Positions 3,747 to 54,132 of a DNA stretch of 56,151 nucleotides are shown piece after piece. The translations under genes were made by a program, and so were the position numbers. The notes beneath the pieces are model-generated. The model worked only from the letters and a program-made list of their open reading frames with translations, had not been told where the DNA came from and did not search any database. The stretch's first letter is position 1. Every line of letters begins with the position of its first letter. This DNA is from Candidatus Kaiserbacteria bacterium (GTDB taxonomy: Bacteria > Patescibacteriota > Minisyncoccia > Phycocordibacterales > UBA918): the NCBI GenBank assembly GCA_043729945.1, contig JAYTKW010000008.1:1-56151 (forward strand), read 5' to 3'.

Positions 3747-3867
3747 TCCTCTTTACCAAGAGTTCACCATGAGTGAGTAGTATGAATGAGTACTCAACGT
3801 GAATGCATATAACAGCAGTATGCGGTCTGAGATACACCATTATTTACTTAAGATATAAAAACTAGAA

Positions 3868-3889
3868 AATAAGGGGACAGGCACATTTA
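3868..3889 (+). repeat. Left 22-bp inverted repeat flanking the RAYT-like gene
   Basis: AATAAGGGGACAGGCACATTTA is the reverse complement of 4634..4655 with one mismatch. Confidence 0.8.
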
Positions 3890-3918
3890 ATTCAGAAAAA
3901 GCATGGCATAATTTATCT

Positions 3919-4609
3919 ATGGCACGAGCAGCTCGAGTTGATATCGGTGGTCAGATATACCACGTTATGAATAGGGCTGTTGGCAGATTGCAGATATTTA
4001 ATACCGACGAAGATTATCTCACGTTTCTAAACATCCTTCGTGAAGCTGGTGAAACTAGTGTGGTGGAAGTGCTGGCATATTGTTGCATGCCAAATCATTG
4101 GCATCTCGTACTTCGTACTAAAGCAGATGGTGATCTAGGAAAGTATATGCAGGCTCACCAATGCACATACCCGTTTTGTACATACAAAAACACAAACTGT
4201 TGGAACTGGACCTCTCTACCAGGGAAGATACAAATCATTCATGGTTGACGACGACATACATCTCAAAACGGTTATAAAGTACGTTGAACGAAATGCTGCG
4301 CGGGCAAATCTGGTAGTCAAGCCAGAAGACTGGCGATGGGGGAGTGCTTGGCTGCGTATGAATGGAAACATTAAGCAAAAGAAATTACTGACGGAATTGC
4401 CTTTTGAACAAATTAATTATTTTGTCTGGCTCAATACAATTGACACCGAGAAAGAGTTAGAGCAAATCAGAAACTCAGTAAAGCGCGGAGTGCCATTTGG
4501 TCGTGAGAGGTGGGTTGACGCAATGGTAGAGAGGTACGGACTGGAATCGACCGTGCGTACTAAGGGGAGACCAAAGAAAGGGCAGGTGAAGGTTTTGGCT
4601 AATGAATAA
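3919..4609 (+). pseudogene. REP-associated tyrosine transposase-like (IS200/Y1 HUH family) gene, frameshifted
   Basis: ORF 3919..4248 carries the HUH motif (PNHWHLVL). ORF 4241..4609 carries the YVERNAARANLV..PEDWRWGS tail. Frame +1 from about 4154 reads LTNAHTRFVHTKTQTVGTGPLYQGRYKSFMVDDD and joins the two ORFs, so a 1-2 nt indel lies near 4150-4156. Confidence 0.8.
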
Positions 4610-4633
4610 AATTAGAACACAATTTTTGTAAAA

Positions 4634-4655
4634 TAAATGTGCCTGTCCCTTTATT
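4634..4655 (-). repeat. Right 22-bp inverted repeat flanking the RAYT-like gene
   Basis: TAAATGTGCCTGTCCCTTTATT pairs with 3868..3889. Confidence 0.8.
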
Positions 4656-4681
4656 ATCTATGCCTGTCCCTTTATTATCTA
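4640..4681. repeat. Perfect 21-bp tandem duplication TGCCTGTCCCTTTATTATCTA x2
   Basis: Units 4640..4660 and 4661..4681 are identical. The last CTA of unit 2 is the complement of the relE stop codon. Confidence 0.9.
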
Positions 4682-4930
4682 TCGGTAGGCCTCTGAACGT
4701 TTACTTATTTTATAGACGATAATTATCTCATCATTAAGTTCAAAAAGAATTCTATAGTCACCTATGCGCTTTCGATAACTGGGAAATGGAGTTTGTAGTT
4801 TTCTGGTATTTGAAGCTTTTATGCCAAAGGTAACCATGTCATCAAAAGCTGTGGCAGCTTTTTTACGTGTCTCTGGTAGTAAATTGGAAAACTCTTTCTC
4901 TGCTTTTTTGGTGAGCAGTATTTTATACAT
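4679..4930 (-). CDS. relE: RelE/ParE-family type II toxin
   Basis: 83 aa with the pattern KKA.KEF..L....RKK........L........K.L......YR.RIGDYRI.F......I.V..I..R..AY. It overlaps the upstream antitoxin by 8 nt. Confidence 0.85.
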   Translation of the reverse strand: MYKILLTKKAEKEFSNLLPETRKKAATAFDDMVTFGIKASNTRKLQTPFPSYRKRIGDYRILFELNDEIIIVYKISKRSEAYR

Positions 4931-5168
4931 GTGTACTACGAATCAAGGCCCAGTCAATGAGGGGCTCCAAACGGTTTTCTTCACGGGCAATAAGGAGATC
5001 AAGGGCGTCATGCATATCTTCAAGTTGTTCAGTATTAATGATCGTGGCAACAGCGATACCACCCTTTTCTAGGCTGATTTGTTCGTTTTTTGTTCGAACC
5101 CGTTCAACTACGGCACCAAGATTAATCCGGGCTTTGGTGATAGGCATTGAGATTTGTTTTGAAGCCAT
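4923..5168 (-). CDS. Phd/YefM-family antitoxin
   Basis: 81 aa with an N-terminal ISMPITKARINLGAVVERV motif typical of Phd/YefM. It is translationally coupled to relE. Confidence 0.82.
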   Translation of the reverse strand: MASKQISMPITKARINLGAVVERVRTKNEQISLEKGGIAVATIINTEQLEDMHDALDLLIAREENRLEPLIDWALIRSTHV

Positions 5169-16694: not shown

Positions 16695-16810
16695 CCAGAT
16701 AACCGCGGTTCACACACATGACGTTTACTTTTGATTTATTCAACAATCAATTAAGGACGTGTATGTATAAATAAAATGAGTACATTTATCATTTATATTA
16801 GTAAATTAAA

Positions 16811-16816
16811 TAATAT
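16811..16816 (+). promoter_or_regulatory. -10 box TAATAT, 7 nt before ATG 16824
   Basis: Supports the 16824 start, which yields a signal peptide. Confidence 0.4.
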
Positions 16817-16823
16817 CCAACTT

Positions 16824-17921
16824 ATGATTAATACATTAAAACAAATTACTGCATCTATTATTGCTGTTGCACTGACAGCCTGGTTAGTTAGTATGCCTGC
16901 CCTGGCCTACGAAAATGACTCGGTAGTGGTAACCAGTAATAATTCGGCTACTATTTCTAATGTGGCTATTTCTTCAGCAAATACGGGGGGTAACACCTCA
17001 CGTGGCGGCCGGGGTGGCCGGGGCGGGGAGGGTGGCGACGGTGGTAGCAATGCCGGTGCCGGCGGGTCAAGTATAAACTCTTCTCCTGGAGGTAGTACTC
17101 AGGAAGCTGGTGATGGCGCCCAAGGTGGTAACGGTGGTAATGCTGAGGGTGACGTTGACGGTATTGACGCACTCCAGCAAGGTGGTGCTGGTGGTAGTGG
17201 TGGTAGTGGTGGTAATACTGGCGCCGGTGGTACGGGGGGTAATAGCGGTACTGGTGGCACTGGCGGTTCTACTGGCGCCGGTGGTCATGGCGGTGATGGC
17301 GCCCAAGGTGGCAATGGTGGTTTGATTGAGACTGGTGAAGCGGTTGTAACATCAGACATTTCTAATGATGTAAACAACAATGACACTACGATCACTCGTG
17401 GCGCATCGTCTACGGCTGACCTTGATGAGACATCTGCTACCTCAACTGGTGATAATCAAGTCACGTTATCAAACGAGGCTGAGGCCACTGCCGATACTGG
17501 TAATAATGAATCGAAGGGTGGTAAAGGTGGTTCAGGTAACGAAGGTGGCGACGGTGGCAACAGTGCTGGTACCGGTGGTACTAGCGAGAACTCCTCTGCT
17601 GGAGGTAGTACTCAGGGGGCTGGTGATGGCGCCCAAGGTGGTAACGGTGGTAATGCTACGTCAACCCCTCCCTCTGAAGTTGATGGCACACAGCTAGCTG
17701 GCAATGGTGGCGCTGGCGGTAATGGTGGCGCTACTGGCGCCGGTGGTGTCGGTGGTAACAGCGGAACAGGCGGGGCTGGTGGTAATACCGGAGTCGGCGG
17801 ATCAGGCGGCAACGGTGCAGCTGGCGGTGAAGGGGGGATTGTACGAACCGGGCGCGCTGATTCATGGAGTAACGTCGTCAATGTTGTTAATCGCAACATT
17901 ACTCGTATCACTAGAAATTAA
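16824..17921 (+). CDS. Secreted glycine-rich repeat protein (GGxGGxGG tracts), internally duplicated
   Basis: Signal peptide ending PALAYE. There are two homologous modules, each of the form ...NTGGN/NTGNN - Gly tract - GSTQxAGDGAQGGNGGNA. The protein ends in a VVNVVNRNITRIT beta-strand-like motif. Confidence 0.8.
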   Translation: MINTLKQITASIIAVALTAWLVSMPALAYENDSVVVTSNNSATISNVAISSANTGGNTSRGGRGGRGGEGGDGGSNAGAGGSSINSSPGGSTQEAGDGAQGGNGGNAEGDVDGIDALQQGGAGGSGGSGGNTGAGGTGGNSGTGGTGGSTGAGGHGGDGAQGGNGGLIETGEAVVTSDISNDVNNNDTTITRGASSTADLDETSATSTGDNQVTLSNEAEATADTGNNESKGGKGGSGNEGGDGGNSAGTGGTSENSSAGGSTQGAGDGAQGGNGGNATSTPPSEVDGTQLAGNGGAGGNGGATGAGGVGGNSGTGGAGGNTGVGGSGGNGAAGGEGGIVRTGRADSWSNVVNVVNRNITRITRN

Positions 17922-32281: not shown

Positions 32282-33562
32282 ATGCGAACCACTAAGAATA
32301 TCATTGCCTTTGTTGGCGGGATTAAACCTAATTCACTTGAGGCAATTCGCGAGTATGGCAAAAAAAATGGAGTCAAATACCAGATAATGTTGATTCAAGA
32401 CAAGCGGCATGAACGAAAAAATGAGGAACCGAGTACCCGTATTCCCCAACAAGACATTACAGTGCAGGTAGATTTCTCTAAACCGGAAAAGATTACCGAA
32501 GCCCTCTTGCCATACGAGGACTCATTGTTGGCGATTTCCTGTCGGAGCGAAGTGCATATTGCCCGCTTTGCAAAAATTATTCCCTGTGTACCGTATTTAC
32601 GTACACCAACGAGTGAGTCACTGACGTGGGCCACTGATAAATATGAGATGCGCAAACGATTTAAACTGTACGATCCGAAAATTACCCCATCCTTTACTCG
32701 CGTCAAAGATACTACGGCTGGTGAACGACAACGACTGATTACCAAAATTGGGTTTCCCATGATTATTAAACCGGCTAATCTCTCGGGTAGTTTGTTTGTG
32801 AGTATTTGTTATCACGAAGAAGATTTAAAAAAAGACCTTGCGACCTGTTTTCGTAAACTTCGCAAAGCCTATGAAAGCGATAAGCGTCTGGAAGAGCCCA
32901 AAGTAATTGCCGAACAATACATGGAAGGAGATATCTATTCGATTGATAGTTATGTCAATTCGCGCGGGTCGGTATATCACTTGCCACTAGTGCGGGTAAA
33001 GACGGGGAAAGACATTGGACACCAAGATTTCTATGGCTATCTGCAAATGACTCCAACTATTTTAAAACGCGAAACGATTAAGCGCGCTGAGGCTGTTACC
33101 GAAACGGCGATCCATGCGCTCGGATTACGGAGTACTACCGCCCACACGGAACTCATGAAGATTGACGGCGAGTTCAAAGTAATCGAGGTCGGACCTCGTA
33201 CCGGTGGGGCGCGTGATGTACTGTATAAACTCAGTTGTGGTATTGAGCATTATCTCAATGACGTGCTAATTCGGATGCCGAAAAAGCCAATCATACCTAA
33301 AAAATGTAACGGGAACGCTGTCTATATGAAATGGTTTTTACCAAAAGAGGGAATCATCGCCTCGATGACCGGTATCAAGAAAATAGAACAATTAGAATCA
33401 TTTTATAAAATTGAAGTGAATAAAAAAATTGGCGACCGGGCGACGTTTGCGCGTAGTGGTGGGCGGTCAGTGTTTAATCTCTATATGTATAACGCTGATC
33501 GGGGACAGTTGTTGGCTGATATACGGAGAGTCGAACAGTTGGTAAAAATTAAGCTTCGGTAG
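32282..33562 (+). CDS. ATP-grasp domain protein (carboxylate-amine ligase class)
   Basis: GFPMIIKPANLSGS, EQYMEGDIYSIDSY and KVIEVGPRTGG are ATP-grasp signatures. Confidence 0.83.
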   Translation: MRTTKNIIAFVGGIKPNSLEAIREYGKKNGVKYQIMLIQDKRHERKNEEPSTRIPQQDITVQVDFSKPEKITEALLPYEDSLLAISCRSEVHIARFAKIIPCVPYLRTPTSESLTWATDKYEMRKRFKLYDPKITPSFTRVKDTTAGERQRLITKIGFPMIIKPANLSGSLFVSICYHEEDLKKDLATCFRKLRKAYESDKRLEEPKVIAEQYMEGDIYSIDSYVNSRGSVYHLPLVRVKTGKDIGHQDFYGYLQMTPTILKRETIKRAEAVTETAIHALGLRSTTAHTELMKIDGEFKVIEVGPRTGGARDVLYKLSCGIEHYLNDVLIRMPKKPIIPKKCNGNAVYMKWFLPKEGIIASMTGIKKIEQLESFYKIEVNKKIGDRATFARSGGRSVFNLYMYNADRGQLLADIRRVEQLVKIKLR

Positions 33563-33565
33563 AGA

Positions 33566-33686
33566 GGAACGCCAAAAATCGCGAATTCCTGCGTTACGCT
33601 ACAGTAATTTTCGTTCACCGTACAAAAAGTACGGCTCACGCTAATTACTTTGCGTGCCTTGAACTCCATCGATTTTATGACGTTCC
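33566..33686 (+). repeat. Extended-hairpin 3'-UTR element, copy A (121 nt)
   Basis: Outer stem GGAACGcCAAAAATCG / CGATTTTaTGaCGTTCC, middle stem AGTAATT / AATTACT, and apical hairpin CACCGTAC-AAAAA-GTACGGCTCAC. It starts 4 nt after the ATP-grasp stop codon. Confidence 0.8.
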
Positions 33687-33721
33687 ATTGAGCGCTTGTG
33701 ATTATGTAAGATTATAAAAAG

Positions 33722-33769
33722 ACGAGGCAAGACCTCGGACTTTTATGTGAGGACGAGGTCTTGCCTCGT
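33722..33769 (+). other. Perfect 16-bp inverted repeat hairpin
   Basis: ACGAGGCAAGACCTCG - 16 nt - CGAGGTCTTGCCTCGT. An A run precedes it, and no T run follows on the plus strand. Confidence 0.6.
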
Positions 33770-33825
33770 ATGGGGAGGTGGGGAAGTTTGGGGGGATTTG
33801 GTGTGGAGTGCGGTATGATGGGGGC

Positions 33826-37285: not shown

Positions 37286-38269
37286 ATGGCGGCTTGGATT
37301 TTACTGGCAACGGCCGGACAATTTGTGAATGCCATTGTGGCGTTCTTGGACAAATATATCGTGTCTGATGAAACGGCGTTGCCAAAACCGTTTATCTACG
37401 CGTTTTACTCGTGTCTGCTTACTGGTGGGTGGATTGTAATTTATTTGATTGGATTTGTGCCGGGGTTGAGTACCCTTGGTGTACCACATTTAGCCAATGT
37501 ACACACCCCGTCGATTCAAGTAGTGGCAATGGCGTTTTTGTCCGCCTATACTTTTTTTATGGCGCTGGTATCGATGTATTCGGCCTTGCGTAGCGCCGAG
37601 GCGGTGAATGTGATGCCGGTCATTGGGGTAATTTCGGCGATTTCCTCACTCGGAATGGTGTATTTGTTCCTGGACGTAGTGCTCGAACCAAATTTTATTT
37701 GGGGGATTGTGGTATTGTCTCTCGGCACGCTCTTGGTAGCACAAACCCTACCGCACATTGATACCGTAATCCATGTCATTCATAGTGGAGTATTTTTTGC
37801 TCTCCATTTCATTACCATGAAAGGACTCTTTCAAGAAACTAGTTTTGATGATGGGTTCTTTTGGTCGAGGATTTGTTTTGTGTTGTTTGCTCTATCATTG
37901 TTACTAGTTCCTACGTACTATAAAAAGATCCGTGAACAAACAGGACTTACTACTAAAAAAACCGGGGCGCTGGTACTTGTGACAAAGATCCTGGCGGGTG
38001 TTGGTGCCTTTATGATTTTGAAAGCCACCGACATGGGGGATGTGGCCGTAGTGCAGGCGCTTGATGGGGTCAAATTTGTATTTATTTTACTGATTACAAT
38101 TTTCTTTGGGGCGTTATTACCGGATAGCGCAGTCGAACATGTGACCAAACCAAGCGAAGTCATGCGGCGGGTGCTGTATGTGCTCGTGATTGCGGCGGGC
38201 TATTTCATCCTGTTTGGTAGTGTCGATTATTTATATCTTTTTACCCAAGTCTATGCGCCGATTACGTAA
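37286..38269 (+). CDS. Polytopic membrane protein (about 10 TM, DMT/EamA-like impression)
   Basis: 327-aa hydrophobic ORF between two glycosidase genes. Confidence 0.78.
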   Translation: MAAWILLATAGQFVNAIVAFLDKYIVSDETALPKPFIYAFYSCLLTGGWIVIYLIGFVPGLSTLGVPHLANVHTPSIQVVAMAFLSAYTFFMALVSMYSALRSAEAVNVMPVIGVISAISSLGMVYLFLDVVLEPNFIWGIVVLSLGTLLVAQTLPHIDTVIHVIHSGVFFALHFITMKGLFQETSFDDGFFWSRICFVLFALSLLLVPTYYKKIREQTGLTTKKTGALVLVTKILAGVGAFMILKATDMGDVAVVQALDGVKFVFILLITIFFGALLPDSAVEHVTKPSEVMRRVLYVLVIAAGYFILFGSVDYLYLFTQVYAPIT

Positions 38270-39260
38270 AATTTTATACTGGATACTGGGTATTCTCGTG
38301 CTGCTGGGCCTTACAGTGGCGTGGCTGGCGTATAAGCCGGTACCTGAGCAGATTACCTACGGTATGTCGTTTAATACCGTCTATGCCCGGGAGCTGGGGC
38401 TCGACTGGAAAGAAACCTACGATGCGATTTTGCATGATCTGGGGGTGCGTAACCTGAGACTAGCTGCCCACTGGCCAATGGTTGAACCAGCCCGTGACAC
38501 CTATAATTTTGAGGAGCTTGATTACCAGATATCTGAAGCCGAGAAAGCAGGTGCCACCATTGTGCTAGCCGTGGGCAGACGTTTGCCCCGGTGGCCTGAA
38601 TGCCACATTCCTACCTGGGCCCGCGAAGAGAGTTGGGACGACCAGAAAATTCAATTACGTGAGTATATCACCGCCGTTGTCGAGCGGTACAAAAATAGCC
38701 CGGCTATTAATTACTGGCAGGTCGAGAATGAGCCGTACCTAGCGTTGTTTGCCTTTGAGCACTGTGGAGCGCTCGATGAAGATTTTTTGAAAGAAGAAAT
38801 TGCCTTGGTACATGAGCTTGATCCCAGCAGGCGAGTGCTCGTGACCGACAGTGGAAATTTAGGAACCTGGGCTGGAGCCTATCGTAACGGGGACGCGTTT
38901 GGCACGAGCGTGTATGTGCATTTTTGGAATCCCGAGTTAGGTCAGTTCAAAACATTTCTCCCGCCCTGGTTTTATCGTGCTAAAGAAAAAGTCATCGCTT
39001 TGCGATACGGCGAGAAACCGACGTTTTTGATTGAGCTATCAGCTGAACCATGGCTGGTTGAGCCGGTAGTCAATGTTCCAATAGATATCCAGTACACTCG
39101 AATGGATGTTGCAAAATTTAATGAAATTTTAGACTATGCCCGCCATACTAGGTTCGATCAACAATATCTATGGGGGGCCGAATGGTGGTATTGGCTGAAG
39201 CAACAGAACGAGCCGGCAATGTGGGATAGAGGTAAAGAACTATACGACACAAGTAAATAA
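38253..39260 (+). CDS. Membrane-anchored clan GH-A (TIM-barrel, GH5/GH42-like) glycoside hydrolase
   Basis: The ATG at 38253 gives a TM anchor. RLAAHWPMVEP is present, as is the acid/base motif WQVENEPYL. Confidence 0.78.
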   Translation: MRRLRKILYWILGILVLLGLTVAWLAYKPVPEQITYGMSFNTVYARELGLDWKETYDAILHDLGVRNLRLAAHWPMVEPARDTYNFEELDYQISEAEKAGATIVLAVGRRLPRWPECHIPTWAREESWDDQKIQLREYITAVVERYKNSPAINYWQVENEPYLALFAFEHCGALDEDFLKEEIALVHELDPSRRVLVTDSGNLGTWAGAYRNGDAFGTSVYVHFWNPELGQFKTFLPPWFYRAKEKVIALRYGEKPTFLIELSAEPWLVEPVVNVPIDIQYTRMDVAKFNEILDYARHTRFDQQYLWGAEWWYWLKQQNEPAMWDRGKELYDTSK

Positions 39261-39261
39261 A

Positions 39262-39377
39262 ACTTCCAAAAATTGCACATCGCGTTGTTGTCCTGCAAAA
39301 AAATATCATTCACCTTACAGTGGTAAGGCTCAAGTTATTTTTCTAGTACGCCTAGCGCTGTATCAATTTTAGAAAGT
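39262..39377 (+). repeat. Extended-hairpin 3'-UTR element, copy C1 (116 nt)
   Basis: Outer stem ACTTCCAAAAATTG / CAATTTTAGAAAGT, middle stem AAAAATA / TATTTTT, and apical hairpin CACCTTAC-AGTG-GTAAGGCTCA. It starts 2 nt after the stop codon. Confidence 0.78.
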
Positions 39378-39488
39378 CTCTTCGAAATCCTTTCAGTGTT
39401 CTCCGTCGAAAAATAATGTGCACCTTACAGTAAGTAAGGCTCACCTTATTTTACTTTTCCCCCTATCTCAGCATCTATTTTATGAAAG
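39378..39488 (+). repeat. Extended-hairpin 3'-UTR element, copy C2 (about 111 nt), abutting C1
   Basis: Outer stem CTCTTCGAAAT / ATTTTATGAAAG, middle stem AAAATAA / TTATTTT, and apical hairpin CACCTTAC-AGTAA-GTAAGGCTCAC. Confidence 0.72.
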
Positions 39489-39630
39489 TCTATTGGTTAC
39501 TTGCAACTCCTGTAAAGTGACTTTGAAAGTCAATCGTATAGGTCCTATATTAAATATGTAAGCTTTAGGTGGTGTTGATAGTTTGTTTTTTATGATTTTT
39601 GAGTTGATACACTGTGATTGATACTTTCTT

Positions 39631-39813
39631 ATGAACTTTTGGCATTTTGTTTTTGGGTTTCTTTACACTCGTGATTGGCACACTGGTCACCCTGAGTTGT
39701 CTCGCCCGCGCGTGGCTTTGTTTGGGGCAGGCGTGTTCTTGGTCGTGTTGGCCTTGCTACTGGTGGCCTATTTACAGGCGCCGGTGGTGTACCTCCCACC
39801 AATCCAGTTATAA
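39631..39813 (+). CDS. Tentative small membrane protein
   Basis: 60-aa ORF with one clear TM helix. Confidence 0.35.
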   Translation: MNFWHFVFGFLYTRDWHTGHPELSRPRVALFGAGVFLVVLALLLVAYLQAPVVYLPPIQL

Positions 39814-46424: not shown

Positions 46425-46492
46425 CGTTTTCTCCTATGTTTTCATAGTATATGATTACTATAAAAAACATAAAAGTGCAAGCATCCCCAGCC

Positions 46493-46526
46493 AAAAACCC
46501 CAGAGCCGTAAGGCTGTGGGGTTTTT
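46493..46526 (-). terminator. Bidirectional intrinsic terminator downstream of rnj and element D
   Basis: AAAAACCCCAGAGCC-GTAA-GGCTGTGGGGTTTTT. Confidence 0.78.
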
Positions 46527-46592
46527 GGTTTTCGTTTCAACAAGTGATGAATCTGTTTTAGAAATGCGCTCGTTTTACTAGAGCCACGCCAA

Positions 46593-46710
46593 CTGCTGCA
46601 GAAAATCTGCTAGTACGAGGCGGCAAGGAGGAAATACGTGAGCCGTACTTTTGTACGGTAAACGTATTTCTGACGCGGACAACGAAGTAATCGCTGATTT
46701 TATGCAGCAG
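46593..46710 (-). repeat. Extended-hairpin 3'-UTR element, copy D (118 nt, minus strand)
   Basis: Read on the minus strand: outer stem CTGCTGCATAAAATC / GATTTTCTGCAGCAG, middle stem GAAATACGT / ACGTATTTC, and apical hairpin ACCGTAC-AAAA-GTACGGCTCAC. It starts 5 nt after the rnj stop codon. Confidence 0.8.
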
Positions 46711-46714
46711 TGTG

Positions 46715-48793
46715 TTATAAGCCGATAAGGACTGGGATGACCATTGGAGATTTCTGAGTCCGCTGCATCAAAAACTGACTCACAATATCTGTTAGTTCGT
46801 CTTTGACGTAATCGAGATCAAGCGGGTTCATTTTCTCGGTATATTTTTCAATAGTTTTCTTGATCAATACACGTGCTTCGGAGAGGAGTAATTGATTCTC
46901 ACGGAGGTAAATAAAACCGCGGGAAATGATGTCTGGTGATTTGCGTAATTTACCAGTTTTGGCGTTGACGGTTGCAATAATGACGAACATACCGTCTTGA
47001 GAGAGAGACATACGATCACGCAAAACGACTTCTTGGCGCGCACCAACGGTAAAGCCATCGACGACCACCATCTCTGTTGGAATCTTGGTCTTGTGGCGGA
47101 TGATTTCGGTACCGTTTTTAATATCGATGATAGTACCGTTATCTGGCACTACTACATTTTCCTTAGGGAAGCCGTTTTCAACCGCTGCAAACATGTGGCT
47201 CTTGAGGTGGTAGTGGTGGCCGTGGACGGGGATGAGGAATTTTGGTTTGATAGTTTGATGTACCCAGACCAGTTCACCCGCGTTACCATGTCCTGAGGCG
47301 TGGACGTGTGAACCTTGGAAGTTTACGACTTTGACGTTCCGTCGGTAAATATTGTCTTTGAGTTTCTGGACAGCAATTTCATTACCGGGAATAACCGATG
47401 ACGACAACACTATCGTATCCCGTTCGTTGAGGATAATTTGTTTGTGTTTATCCTGAGCCATCCGCATGAGGGCGGCGAACTCTTCACCCTGGGCCCCAGT
47501 AGAGAGGATGACAATTTGGTCTGCTGGGTAATTTGGGATGTCGCCGGCACTAATGAACGTTTGTGGTTTAGCGACCAGCATTTTAGCCTGGATAGCAATT
47601 TCAATAGCGACTTTGATACTCCGTCCTTCCATCACGACTTTTTTACCCAATGCTTCACAGACATTAATCACACCAATGAGGCGGTCAAATTGTGAGGCAA
47701 AGGTACCGATAATCATACGACCTTTGGTAGTGCGAATAATCTCTTCGAGGGTGAGGAACACTTTGGCTTCTGACACCGAGAAACCGCTGCGGTCAGCGTT
47801 GGTTGAATCACAAATTAGAACTAGGTTGTTGTGAGTACCAACTTCTTCCCAGGATTTTTTTTCTTCGACTACAACTTCGCCGTTTACGTTATTGAGTTTA
47901 ATGTCTCCGGTCACCACAACGTCACCGTGTTTAGTTTCGATGGCGAGACCCATAGCGTCAGGAATCGAGTGGGTGACAGGAAATGTCCGGATGCGGGTAC
48001 TGCCGACCGTAAAAGCCTCACCCTCTTTGACAACATGAATATCAACCGGCTCCATGTGCGGGAACTCTTCTTGACGTTTGAGAATCATCAGTGAGGTCAG
48101 GTATTGGGTGTAGATTGGTGGGTTACCGAGGCGCTCCATCACAAATGGGATACCACCGATGTGGTCGAGGTGGCCGTGGGTGACCACGAGTGCGCGGATT
48201 TTATCTTTGCGCTCTTCGAGGTACTGTGTATTTGGCAAAATGTACTGGATACCCGGCGCGTTGCTCTCTTCGGATACAAATTGGAAACCAGCATCGATAA
48301 CAATGATGTCAGCGGCTGTTTCAACGATAATCATGTTACGGCCAATTTCTTCTACACCAGATACCGGAATGATACGAACCGTGTCCAGGTCCGTGATGGT
48401 TGGCAATATCGGATTTTTCTCATCGGTGACGGTCATCCGGTGGGTGAGAGCGGGGCTCGTCATCGGCCGACGACCATTACCGCCGCCATTTCGTTTGCGA
48501 TTATTGTTACGTCCACCACGCTTGGCAGGTGCTGTGCCTGTGCCTGCGGACGCAGCAGCGCTGTCAGTTGGTCTCCTCGCGGGAGTGTGAGGTAATCTGC
48601 GGGCTGGTGCTTGGTGTAATCCGGCGCCAGTACGTGGCGCAGATGATTGGCCTGGTCGAGAGCCCTGGGGTCTACTACCACGATTAAAAGGGCGACGTTG
48701 TGGTCGAGCTTGATTGAGGTTGGTGGATGTTGTGGTCGGGACAGGATTTGCGGGTGCGGTGGGTTGGTGCGGCTGTGATTGTGGTGTGTTCAT
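46715..48793 (-). CDS. rnj: Ribonuclease J with about 130-aa Arg/Gly/Pro-rich disordered N-terminal extension
   Basis: The metallo-beta-lactamase motif VTHGHLDHIGG, a beta-CASP region and a conserved C-terminal domain. The N-terminus is rich in RGG/RRP/NNRKRNGGG. Confidence 0.95.
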   Translation of the reverse strand: MNTPQSQPHQPTAPANPVPTTTSTNLNQARPQRRPFNRGSRPQGSRPGQSSAPRTGAGLHQAPARRLPHTPARRPTDSAAASAGTGTAPAKRGGRNNNRKRNGGGNGRRPMTSPALTHRMTVTDEKNPILPTITDLDTVRIIPVSGVEEIGRNMIIVETAADIIVIDAGFQFVSEESNAPGIQYILPNTQYLEERKDKIRALVVTHGHLDHIGGIPFVMERLGNPPIYTQYLTSLMILKRQEEFPHMEPVDIHVVKEGEAFTVGSTRIRTFPVTHSIPDAMGLAIETKHGDVVVTGDIKLNNVNGEVVVEEKKSWEEVGTHNNLVLICDSTNADRSGFSVSEAKVFLTLEEIIRTTKGRMIIGTFASQFDRLIGVINVCEALGKKVVMEGRSIKVAIEIAIQAKMLVAKPQTFISAGDIPNYPADQIVILSTGAQGEEFAALMRMAQDKHKQIILNERDTIVLSSSVIPGNEIAVQKLKDNIYRRNVKVVNFQGSHVHASGHGNAGELVWVHQTIKPKFLIPVHGHHYHLKSHMFAAVENGFPKENVVVPDNGTIIDIKNGTEIIRHKTKIPTEMVVVDGFTVGARQEVVLRDRMSLSQDGMFVIIATVNAKTGKLRKSPDIISRGFIYLRENQLLLSEARVLIKKTIEKYTEKMNPLDLDYVKDELTDIVSQFLMQRTQKSPMVIPVLIGL

Positions 48794-51027: not shown

Positions 51028-51100
51028 GCCCACTACTATTTTACAGCCCGGTCCTCGCTCCAGGCATGGTCGCTGCGGGGGCTGTAAAATAGTAGTGGGC
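51028..51100. repeat. Perfect 22-bp inverted repeat with 29-nt GC-rich spacer
   Basis: GCCCACTACTATTTTACAGCCC (51028..51049) and GGGCTGTAAAATAGTAGTGGGC (51079..51100). The repeat overlaps the last 20 codons of the ORF 51041..51613. Confidence 0.9.
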
Positions 51101-51613
51101 TACGGGCTGCTGGATGTAACGTAAAAAGAAACCGCCCGAACCCACGTTGCGAGGCCGGGAGGGTCTCTTGTAGGTTCGGGCAGATTTCACACGACTTGGA
51201 TTTTTCTTTTTGTCGAGTAACAACCTATTCATATCTGCCCAGGCACGAGGTGGCTCAGCCTTGAAAAGCTCCTGGTATGAAAACATCGTATCGAACATCC
51301 CACGGTGGTCAGTGTGACCACGCCAAGCGAGATCTCGCGGATGCATAAACTTTCTAAAGTAACTTATGCAATCATTATAATACTGAACTCGGTCTGATTC
51401 ATGAACTCGTTGTACGGCCATGATTGAACCTGGTGCGACAACTCGTTTTTGCGGGAAGTTGAGTATTAGTCGCCAAAAACGCTTGTATTCTTCGACTAAT
51501 TCTGCCAGTAGATCCTGGCTAGCGTTATGGGCCGGATACCACTGTGCCAGTGTTATTTTGAGTCCAGACTCAGGCAGAATTGGCGGTCCATAGTGTGGAG
51601 TTGTTACATTCAC
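51041..51613 (-). CDS. Hypothetical protein (GRDP/DUF1399-like impression); C-terminus runs into the inverted repeat
   Basis: 190-aa ORF. The segment YKRFWRLIL..P...V.P...M..VQRVHESD...Y..DC loosely matches DUF1399. The family call is low confidence. Confidence 0.6.
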   Translation of the reverse strand: MNVTTPHYGPPILPESGLKITLAQWYPAHNASQDLLAELVEEYKRFWRLILNFPQKRVVAPGSIMAVQRVHESDRVQYYNDCISYFRKFMHPRDLAWRGHTDHRGMFDTMFSYQELFKAEPPRAWADMNRLLLDKKKNPSRVKSARTYKRPSRPRNVGSGGFFLRYIQQPVAHYYFTAPAATMPGARTGL

Positions 51614-52167: not shown

Positions 52168-53821
<1,654 letters not shown>

Positions 53822-53823
<2 letters not shown>

Positions 53824-53942
53824 AAGCTTAAAATCGGCCAGCTACTTTGTTGCACTGCAGAAATTTACCATCACCCTACAGTAAGTAGGGCTCACGTAAA
53901 TTTCATTGTGCGCCTCGTATCTGTCTCGATTTATAGACTTTT
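53822..53942 (+). repeat. Extended-hairpin 3'-UTR element, copy E1 (121 nt)
   Basis: Outer stem AAAAGCTTAAAATCG / CGATTTATAGACTTTT, middle stem GAAATTTAC / GTAAATTTC, and apical hairpin CACCCTAC-AGTAA-GTAGGGCTCAC. It overlaps the groEL stop codon. Confidence 0.82.
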
Positions 53943-53958
53943 AACTAAAAATAAAACA

Positions 53959-54077
53959 GAACGGTAAAATCACTGCATCTGCTTCGTTAGCCTTCAGAAA
54001 ATTATTCTCAACGTACAGAAAGTACGTCTCGAAAAATTTTCCTCGTCCGCCTCGCAGCTACAGCAATTTAACCATTC
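53959..54077 (+). repeat. Extended-hairpin 3'-UTR element, copy E2 (119 nt)
   Basis: Outer stem GAACGGTAAAATCACTG / CAGCAATTTAACCATTC (imperfect), middle stem GAAAATT / AATTTTC, and apical hairpin CAACGTAC-AGAAA-GTACGTCTC. Confidence 0.78.
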
Positions 54078-54105
54078 TTATCTACTCTTCATTAAGATAA
54101 AAACA

Positions 54106-54132
54106 GAAAAAGAGCCTGGCGGCTCTTTTTCT
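54106..54132 (+). terminator. Intrinsic terminator of the groESL transcript, downstream of E1/E2
   Basis: AAAAAGAGCC-TGGC-GGCTCTTTTTCTTT. Confidence 0.82.

Follow-up and report, generated by a model that had tools for sequence, protein, structure and literature searches.

Why is a glycoside hydrolase (GH) gene in a Candidatus Kaiserbacteria genome followed, directly past its stop codon, by two head-to-tail copies of a hairpin-forming sequence, and what keeps such copies so close to the end of a reading frame? The question was raised by a 56,151-nucleotide (nt) stretch of DNA (contig JAYTKW010000008.1 of assembly GCA_043729945.1; the whole of this stretch is called the window here), in which the two copies, C1 and C2, fill positions 39262-39488. 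A preliminary description of these positions had the copies abutting without a spacer and sharing a nearly identical apical hairpin, and both statements agree with the sequence, the apical hairpin common to the two being CACCTTAC...GTAAGGCTCA. The analysis reported here places C1 and C2 in a family of long hairpins that lie, almost always in sense orientation, at the stop codons of genes in 28 species-representative genomes. The reading favored here, to which we give an even chance of being correct, is that the family is an old, host-maintained, cis-acting hairpin of the 3' untranslated region (UTR) that works at the mRNA 3' end or at translation termination.

The hairpin family and the constraint on its fold

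The extent of the family was determined with a strict core pattern, CACCNTACARN{2,3}GTANGGCTCAN{18}CCT, which was run against the GTDB species representatives (596 Gb) and returned 62 loci in 28 genomes where about one chance match is expected by our own arithmetic. Eight genomes gave between 2 and 8 loci each. All of the matching records were labelled either Patescibacteria or plain "bacterium", with Kaiserbacteria, Parcubacteria/Paceibacteria, Nomura-, Zambryskii- and Yanofskybacteria and Minisyncoccia among the labels and two records labelled Saccharibacteria. The proteins of the window itself were seen on metagenome contigs only, and their homologues were annotated as Parcubacteria or Paceibacteria. 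A covariance model seeded from 22 copies in one register (models R1 and R2) was then applied to the window and the 62 loci (8-kb loci sampled, 503 kb in total), in which it finds 105 copies, including tandem arrays of up to three. C1 scores 99 bits with R1 and 103 bits with R2 (E 8e-23) when the model is built from other copies, and E-values of this kind exclude a chance origin. The window holds exactly six copies at four loci, a count on which the model and a regular expression for the apical hairpin agree. The R2 scores of the five full copies range from 78 to 115 bits and that of C2 is 36 bits, while the reverse complement of any of the six reaches at most 19 bits with R1.

Searches for a known identity gave no match to the family. 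At the gathering level of Rfam release 15 the only match in the window was a tRNA, and at E up to 10 the interval 39200-39600 returned two chance-level matches to eukaryotic families only. The core pattern had 0 matches in viral contigs. The literature searched on Patescibacteria repeats, structured RNAs and MITEs (short for miniature inverted-repeat transposable elements) yielded no description of the family, and a MITE survey of 183,232 genomes does not mention Patescibacteria. No RNA-seq runs were listed for the window groEL locus or for locus L035, and the window was present in DNA metagenomes only. The family is general across a bacterial class and apparently undescribed.

Each unit is a single long, imperfect, A/U-rich hairpin of about 125 nt (115-125 nt), and the copies align nearly without gaps when they are anchored on the apical hairpin. 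From the outside inward, the variable outer stems P1 and P2 (of which P2 has AAAAU beside one arm and AUUUU beside the other) are followed by a short inner stem and then by a conserved internal loop, which has an invariant GUU (5' arm, 20 nt ahead of the core) and a GCCU (3' arm, exactly 18 nt past it). Inside this loop come P3, the A/U-rich P4, a conserved 3x3 internal loop with UCA opposite CUC, and a 6-bp apical stem (P5), CCGUAC/GUACGG, which closes an A-rich loop. The family consensus reads uaggAcuuccaaaauugcC...CuUuGUUG...UUCAcCGUACAAaAAGUACGgCUCA...CGCCUaG...caauuuugaaagUccua, and the unpaired motifs UUCACCGUACAAnAAGUACGGCUCA, GUUG and CGCCUnG are kept across the 105 copies and 28 genomes. 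Terminal positions are each conserved in less than 75% of copies; the consensus ends are TAGGACTTCC/GAAAGTCCTA, subfamilies share ends, and the outer stem is often A-rich on its 5' side and U-rich on its 3' side. The K-turn, loop E and the 11-nt tetraloop receptor were considered for the conserved loops by eye only, and none fits.

Some copies depart from this plan. One (L024:7367-7572) has an insertion of about 85 nt inside its apical hairpin that folds into three small hairpins, the first being GAAAGTC...GACTTTC, and its orthologue (L022:1645-1770) is without the insertion. Another (L041:2186-2303) is without the entire interior and consists of outer stems only. At about 2176-2200 of L078 a groEL stop codon is embedded in a short perfect hairpin, TAAACGTCC-CTGC-GGACGTTTA, which is like an outer stem with no interior.

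The fold is supported by several measurements. In the 105-copy alignment, which was fitted to the model and so favors structure, 83.4% of cells are paired, compared to 36-46% when the partners are slid by 1-3 columns, and for 45 of the 46 base pairs both partners have changed. Covariation scores 0.564 (controls about 0.10), and none of 500 shuffles reaches the observed values. Independent minimum-free-energy folds of single copies give the same architecture. When 17 orthologous pairs of copies were compared (L014 and L017 are one example), 136 double changes kept a base pair, 86 single changes broke or made one, and 6 of the total of 228 went via wobble. At variable columns, copies have a mean identity of 0.40 within genomes and of 0.39 between them, with a within-genome 99th percentile of 0.61 and a maximum of about 0.77, and the nearest relative of a copy is usually its orthologue. 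Copies in one genome resemble each other no more than they resemble copies elsewhere, and nothing points to a recent burst. Because old and orthologous copies keep the fold and the loops while the stems vary, the data also suggest selection at each locus.

Stop codons, gene ends and the history of single copies

The most unusual property of the family is its position. The preliminary description had noticed that the first copies at the four window loci begin at stop codons, and a stop-distance test over all 105 copies fails to refute this adjacency, which is non-random and clade-wide: for 71 of the 105 a long co-oriented open reading frame (ORF) ends within -8..+16 nt of model position 1, compared to 6% for random positions. 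The stops fall mainly into offset classes at -4/-3, just before P1 (18 copies), at 0/+1, the first three positions of the model (23), and at +9..+12 (14). In the last class the stop lies at the P1/P2 boundary in UAAAAU and the gene takes its last codons from the element, as the GH orthologue at L066 does; some ORFs run 9-18 nt into the element and end at the element's TAA or TAG. At least one stop nucleotide is paired in the hairpin base in 54 of the 71 minimum-free-energy folds. The adjacent stops are TAA in 41 cases, TAG in 30 and TGA in 0, whereas the background in the same loci is 65%, 26% and 9%; our own calculation gives P ~0.001 for the absence of TGA and P ~0.002 for the excess of TAG. 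Copies that are not adjacent to a stop are mostly second or third members of tandem arrays, and the copy at L042 is the only one that abuts a stop via its 3' end, in reverse orientation.

The 3' side of the element is not anchored, the next gene lying anywhere from 0 to more than 800 nt away. Of 64 co-oriented downstream genes, 21 begin no more than 60 nt past the copy, which makes those copies intercistronic. Past the element, a canonical terminator is present at three of the four loci in the window, and the groEL orthologues have one as well. Because orientation follows the gene, and because copies sit between stop and terminator or between cistrons, the element is expected to lie in the sense transcript. 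The upstream genes are diverse housekeeping genes (GroEL, EF-Tu, SecY, sigma-70, MreB, PilB and RNase J among them), and a tie to one gene family was rejected since 106 Pfam families occur among 70 upstream proteins. No elements were found after tRNA genes. A recoding signal (SECIS, PYLIS or read-through) was also rejected, as no ORF continues past the stop, the stop is never TGA and the homologues encoded upstream are full-length. The idea that only the stop-adjacent member of a tandem stays intact gave a mixed result: C1 is better preserved than C2 and D1 than D2, and the reverse holds in L027, L060 and L021.

The remaining window copies illustrate these rules. Copy A (33564..33692, plus strand; R2 107 bits) starts 1 nt past the TAG at 33560-33562 of an ATP-grasp gene (32282-33562, plus strand; NCBIfam ATP-grasp matches) and the terminator scan gives, beyond it, a terminator-like hairpin or long inverted repeat at about 33718-33770. 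Copy B (46587..46712, minus strand; R2 78 bits) has its model start at 46712, 2 nt past the TAA at 46715-46717 of an RNase J gene (46715-48793, minus strand; NF047419, RNase J1), and a terminator hairpin follows at 46491-46532. Copy D1 (53820..53948, plus strand; R2 115 bits) has the groEL TAA at 53821-53823 inside its outer stem, and all three nucleotides of this stop are paired in its minimum-free-energy fold. D2, the second copy in that tandem (53957..54083, plus strand; R2 93 bits), is followed by a bidirectional terminator at 54105-54132 (terminator scan). Every window copy is co-oriented with its upstream gene, and the first copy at each locus overlaps the stop or lies 0-2 nt from it; the stop-codon starts are confirmed at all four loci. 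Copy B sits between plus-strand copies and is inverted along with its own gene, which argues against a replication-strand rule. Unlike C1 and C2, D1 and D2 are unrelated to each other.

All six copies fall within 33.5-54.1 kb, and window positions 1-33000 hold no copy despite many co-oriented gene ends. The RNase J ORF encodes 692 aa, of which the RNase J1 model covers residues 139-690, leaving an N-terminal extension of about 138 aa, provided that translation truly begins at the first ATG.

At the focal locus, the upstream gene (38253..39260, plus strand; Pfam PF02449 and PF00331) encodes a 335-aa protein with a GH42/GH10-like TIM barrel and 100% identity over 335 aa to P0001, and it ends in a TAA at 39258-39260. 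C1 is a full-length family member that covers model positions 1-128 and ends at 39381 or, in the covariance-model match, at 39385 (39258..39381 or 39258..39385, plus strand), with the TAA as model positions 1-3; its hairpin extends over about 39262-39377, with a minimum free energy of -24.4 kcal/mol (z -2.7), and the frame beyond its TAA closes again within the element. C2 (39378..39488, plus strand) follows with no gap and is degenerate. It scores 36-37 bits locally, in a match restricted to 39405-39456 (model positions 37-88) that takes in P4, P5 and the apical loop; P5 and the A/T-rich P4 are intact, the P3 and inner-P2 pairings are gone, the outer stem is partly paired, the 3' end retains GAAAGTCT, and the overall fold is weak (-16.8 kcal/mol). 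In both copies the third apical pair is U-A, a minority variant found as U-A in 6 and as G-C in 56 of 68 aligned copies.

The 91%-identical GH orthologue at L066 carries one copy, which is like C1 at its 5' end and like C2 inside, and it shares with C1 and C2 the rare apical stem CCUUAC/GUAAGG. This mosaic suggests either that C1 and C2 arose from one ancestral copy by local duplication or that L066 is a collapsed pair. The preliminary description had held that the two are not a simple recent duplication: they are indeed not recent, but they are local relatives rather than two independent insertions. C1 and C2 are probably an old local duplication of which C2 is decaying. The GH locus has two copies in the window, one at L066 and none at L068-L071. 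The distant GH orthologues (76-80% identity) have no copy, and a conserved gene for a predicted membrane protein of about 100 aa is found there. This gene stands directly after the GH gene at L069:3524-3838, L071:3667-3993 and L068:1649-1948. In the window it has been lost, and 39262-39630 instead contains C1, C2 and about 140 nt of non-coding DNA.

Downstream of C2, in the place of an ordinary terminator, the 13-bp palindrome GACTTTGAAAGTC is present at 39519..39531, where the preliminary description had placed it, and it resembles the family termini joined together (consensus TAGGACTTCC...GAAAGTCCTA). From its sequence it may be the remnant of a third copy whose interior was deleted, and the L041 copy, the L078 hairpin and this palindrome may all be deletion footprints. 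The palindrome overlaps the -35 hexamer of a promoter-like site at 39523-39551 (TTGAAA-17-TATATT, 10/12 matches), which precedes a conserved 60-aa ORF (39631..39813, plus strand) that is kept in relatives (tblastn 72% identity to a 63-aa ORF of L068, E 2e-20).

The comparison of orthologous loci that the preliminary description had called for was run, and it showed presence and absence of copies with sharp boundaries at the stop codon. Among 80 metagenomic groEL loci only L072 (93% amino acid identity) and L075 (82%) carry an element; the relatives L073, L074, L076, L077 and L078 (78-87% identity) are empty and have 20-30 nt from stop to terminator. The single copy of L072 is the orthologue of D2 and starts 1 nt past the groEL stop (alignment A7), and D1 is a 135-nt indel, relative to L072, that lies exactly between the groEL stop and D2. 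The D1 indel and the position of the L072 copy show that, on more than one occasion, elements have come to or gone from the stop codon itself. The junctions of the indel are TAA on the left and TTTTAA on the right, plus 12 unexplained nt, and a clean target-site duplication is not visible.

Weighing the explanations

The model favored here proposes that the element would be transcribed as the first part of the 3' UTR, or as the intercistronic spacer, of ordinary Paceibacteria-type genes. Judged by the known ribosome footprint, a terminating ribosome would have to melt P1 and part of P2, and the hairpin would re-form afterwards. The closed hairpin would block 3'-to-5' exonucleases up to the last codon, and the conserved loops may be bound by a protein, either an RNase III-like processing enzyme or another binder. 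In either case the element would govern how stable the upstream cistron is or how it is processed, and possibly how efficient termination is. At its origin the family was probably a spreading mobile sequence, and maintenance by the host and selfish spread can both hold, as for repetitive extragenic palindrome (REP) elements. Precedents exist for several of these steps. REPs at most about 15 nt from a stop reportedly stall terminating ribosomes (Liang, Rudd and Deutscher, 2015, Mol Cell). REP elements also affect or stabilise upstream mRNA (PMC3184786), and the decay of REP-containing mRNA requires RNase R and PNPase (PMC12320835). Correia hairpins are cut by RNase III, and ERIC elements at gene 3' ends alter transcript levels (PMC10969869).

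Several observations weigh against this model. Transcription of the element, its role as an exonuclease barrier or processing site, and the existence of a protein partner are all things that we infer, and a barrier to exonucleases alone would not require either conserved loops or nucleotide-precise adjacency to the stop. Close relatives differ through gain and loss of copies (only 2 of 80 groEL loci have an element, and GH orthologues have one copy or no copy), and no single locus requires the element. The compensatory changes rarely go through G-U (6 of 228) and 74 of the 136 are of transversion type, a pattern for which correction of hairpins at the DNA level or replacement of alleles is as good an explanation as selection on RNA. 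There is also no wobble signature of the sense strand, since G-U plus U-G number 239 and A-C plus C-A 227, and outside three conserved wobble positions A-C (223) outnumbers G-U (81); mismatches on the sense strand are pyrimidine-rich and G-poor. Finally, the orthologous copies at L043:6785-6912 and L062:1399-1527, which follow a 99%-identical PilB-like gene, have flanks that are 96-98% identical while the elements themselves are only 76% identical. These two differ by 11 compensatory pair changes, with GUUG, UUCACCGUAC...GUACGGCUCA and CGCCUAG unchanged, and the divergence extends from the last two codons (synonymous changes) until about 20 nt beyond the element. The cause could be replacement of the allele or fast evolution at this site.

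Much of this could be accommodated if the family were a selfish, non-autonomous mobile element (MITE- or REPIN-like) with no host function, in which an enzyme acting in trans reads the apical hairpin and loops and inserts the element precisely at TAA/TAG or TA. The conserved fold would then be a requirement of mobilisation. This is the main rival; it is possible, and we would hold it tentatively. The missing wobble signature, the compensatory changes that seldom go through G-U and the patchy presence of copies suit such an element, reshaped by DNA-level events, equally well. This explanation accounts well for the sharp presence/absence boundaries at stops, including the 135-nt D1 indel, for the three different elements that sit 0-1 nt past groEL stops whose empty relatives have spacers of 20-30 nt, and for the inverted consensus termini TAGGACTTCC...GAAAGTCCTA. 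A subfamily with TAAAACTTCC ends stands after unrelated genes in different genomes (C1, L005, L062 and L075), tandem arrays reach three copies, and ORFs sometimes enter an element by 9-18 nt and use its TAA or TAG. The preference for TAA/TAG over TGA (71 to 0, with a TGA background of 9%) and the scarcity of wobble intermediates, which fits DNA-level events, point the same way. However, no genome has near-identical copies (the maximum is about 0.77 and the mean equals that between genomes), so that recent transposition has left no sign, and in orthologous copies the compensatory changes have occurred in situ. Variation in the outer stems is high, unlike in the inverted terminal repeats that a transposase binds. 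A symmetric TA target predicts insertion in both orientations, but the observed ratio is 71 to 1, and orientation tracks the gene rather than the DNA strand (copy B), which misfits the lagging-strand targeting of IS200/IS605-type elements. A target-site duplication could not be shown at D1/L072, and viral contigs have no copy.

The window does encode a candidate mobilising enzyme, a RAYT-/IS200-like Y1/HUH transposase gene (3919-4609, plus strand; PF01797, E 7.5e-9), where RAYT stands for REP-associated tyrosine transposase. The gene has an HUH-like motif, NHWHLVL, and a tyrosine motif, YVERNAARANLV, but it is frameshifted near 4165-4245, and when read through it scores 59 bits with the RAYT model NF047646, below the cut-off of 80. 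It is flanked by 52-nt inverted repeats (3863-3914 and 4609-4681, with AAGGGACAGGCA; one arm is duplicated) that are unrelated to the hairpin family and not dispersed in the window, and homologues occur in only 2 of 151 fetched loci. The gene was rejected as the mobiliser on the last two grounds and is a lead only. Beside it, on the minus strand at 4679-5168, are overlapping ORFs of 83 and 81 aa that by eye look like a putative RelE/ParE-type toxin and Phd/YefM-type antitoxin.

A further proposal would join mobility and host use: the element would be, or once have been, a mobile hairpin with stop codons as its homing target, entering in sense orientation within 0-1 nt of UAA/UAG and never at UGA. 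Its own 5'-terminal UAR could become the stop, and the copies would then be kept by the host as termination-coupled 3'-UTR devices. We regard this as having a small chance of being right. Such a rule of target selection at stop codons, maybe coupled to transcription or translation, is to our knowledge known for no bacterial transposable element. It is unlikely that the hairpin is instead excised from the 3' UTR and acts in trans, as small RNAs or as a binding platform or sponge for one RNA-binding protein. A conserved apical stem-loop and internal loops on varying stems is the pattern of a protein-recognition scaffold, and many copies per genome stand behind well-expressed genes, but a trans-acting RNA has no need to start on a stop codon and the variable stems come with no conserved single-stranded seed.

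Two other explanations are very improbable in our view. A single-stranded DNA structure, such as an attC-like recombination site that bounds cassettes or a priming or replication signal, would explain why structure is kept more than sequence and why the site lies directly after the stop, as integron attC sites do, and the missing G-U bias is compatible with DNA. But the termini are not RYYYAAC/GTTRRRY core sites, the upstream genes are core housekeeping genes rather than cassettes, no integrase was found among the window ORFs scanned, and orientation follows transcription, with copy B reversed within a plus-strand run, which does not suit a replication-strand signal. A lineage-specific, non-canonical transcription terminator, about which we are equally doubtful, would suit the sense orientation at gene 3' ends and an outer stem in which A often prevails on the 5' side and U on the 3' side. 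However, the element is a 115-125-nt A/U-rich hairpin and not a short GC-rich hairpin with a U-tract, and a classic GC-rich hairpin with a T-run stands past the elements at 33.7, 46.5 and 54.1 kb and at L072 and L075. One third of copies also lie no more than 60 nt upstream of the next co-oriented gene, and most genes, including most orthologues of copy-carrying genes, have ordinary terminators only.

Relation to known repeats and meaning for the Patescibacteria

Returning to the host-maintained 3'-UTR hairpin, the family can be compared with repeats of other bacteria. REP/BIME and REPIN-RAYT systems are alike in being interspersed extragenic palindromes, mostly in transcribed 3' regions and with compensatory changes in their stems. 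They differ in that a REP is GC-rich and 20-40 nt long and a REPIN is an inverted doublet of a single REP, whereas the family is a single A/T-rich hairpin of about 125 nt whose two arms carry different motifs (GUU against GCCU, UCA against CUC). REPIN populations cluster round a master sequence, while copies of the family within a genome (8-kb loci sampled) are as divergent as those between genomes. A cognate RAYT gene would be flanked by the same repeats, in contrast to the RAYT-like gene of the window, and REPs do not show the strict sense orientation and nucleotide-level stop anchoring of the family.

ERIC elements (127 bp, Enterobacteria; Yersinia) duplicate a TA. They resemble the family in size, in forming one long imperfect hairpin, in their transcribed intergenic or 3' location and in patchy presence at orthologous loci. 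They differ in being conserved in sequence over their full length with defined inverted terminal repeats, while in the family conservation is confined to the loops and change in the stems is close to saturation; they also belong to another phylum and have no evident sequence relation. Orientation-dependent effects of ERIC at the mRNA level have been described (PMC10969869). Correia (NEMIS) elements of Neisseria share with the family internal loops in a long helix, and they lie in polycistronic transcripts where they are processed by RNase III and set the stability of flanking cistrons (PMC10969869). Correia elements differ by conserved inverted terminal repeats and promoters and by having no stop anchoring. 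The intercistronic RNase III sites of phage T7 are likewise hairpins, with internal loops in a long helix, that lie in polycistronic transcripts, are processed by RNase III and set the stability of flanking cistrons; they are not dispersed repeats and have no stop anchoring.

EFAR (Enterococcus faecalis repeats) and SMAG, from the Di Nocera laboratory, are palindromic miniature insertion sequences near ORF ends with variable termini derived from target stem-loops. Their sequences are unrelated to the family, and an EFAR-like pre-existing hairpin target was given little support, as a stop-anchored hairpin of at least 7 bp was found at only 7 of 348 element-free stops. QMITE2 of Coxiella burnetii is a MITE found mainly in the 3' UTRs of ORFs (PMC10969869). 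It differs from the family in being species-specific and conserved in sequence. We know of no report of a conserved-loop/variable-stem architecture or of stop-codon overlap for QMITE2. TIGR arrays, which occur in Patescibacteria and their phages, are tandem arrays that give 36-nt guide RNAs beside a tas (Nop-domain) gene (PMC12045711). A TIGR array was rejected because the family unit is about 125 nt, is single or at most threefold and is dispersed behind housekeeping genes, and no Nop-domain match was found among the window ORFs scanned. The family is thus of a known kind, interspersed palindromic 3'-UTR repeats, and differs from the known examples by its conserved loops on variable stems, its old copies and its sense-only, precise anchoring at UAA/UAG.

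Two other features of the window were noted in passing. At 17028-17818, within the ORF 16776-17921, two pairs of direct repeats (117 nt at 85% identity and 128 nt at 70%) are spaced by 513-516 nt and indicate an internal duplication of about 171 aa in a protein without a Pfam match. A long, near-perfect palindrome, CACTACTATTTTACAGCCC...GGGCTGTAAAATAGTAGTG, lies at 51031-51101 and shares sequence with the 3' end of the minus-strand ORF 51041-51613. It has no relation to the family and, as a generic hairpin, reaches only 15 bits.

Genomes of Patescibacteria are about 1 Mb and leave hardly any space for repeats. In such streamlined genomes it is notable that the 56-kb window has six copies (about 770 nt, 1.4% of its length) and that the fold has been held by compensatory change across 28 species. 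The covariance model can be used as a lineage marker for Paceibacteria contigs, and for gene callers the family means that spurious ORFs across elements are possible and that true C-termini can be encoded by the element, as at L066. The placement at UAA/UAG is nucleotide-precise and sharper than reported for REP, ERIC and Correia elements, and it offers a handle on the coupling of termination to mRNA 3'-end decay or on a new mode of target-site choice by a mobile element. The family would mark a conserved, apparently undescribed RNA-protein or DNA-protein interaction in a huge and mostly uncultured lineage.

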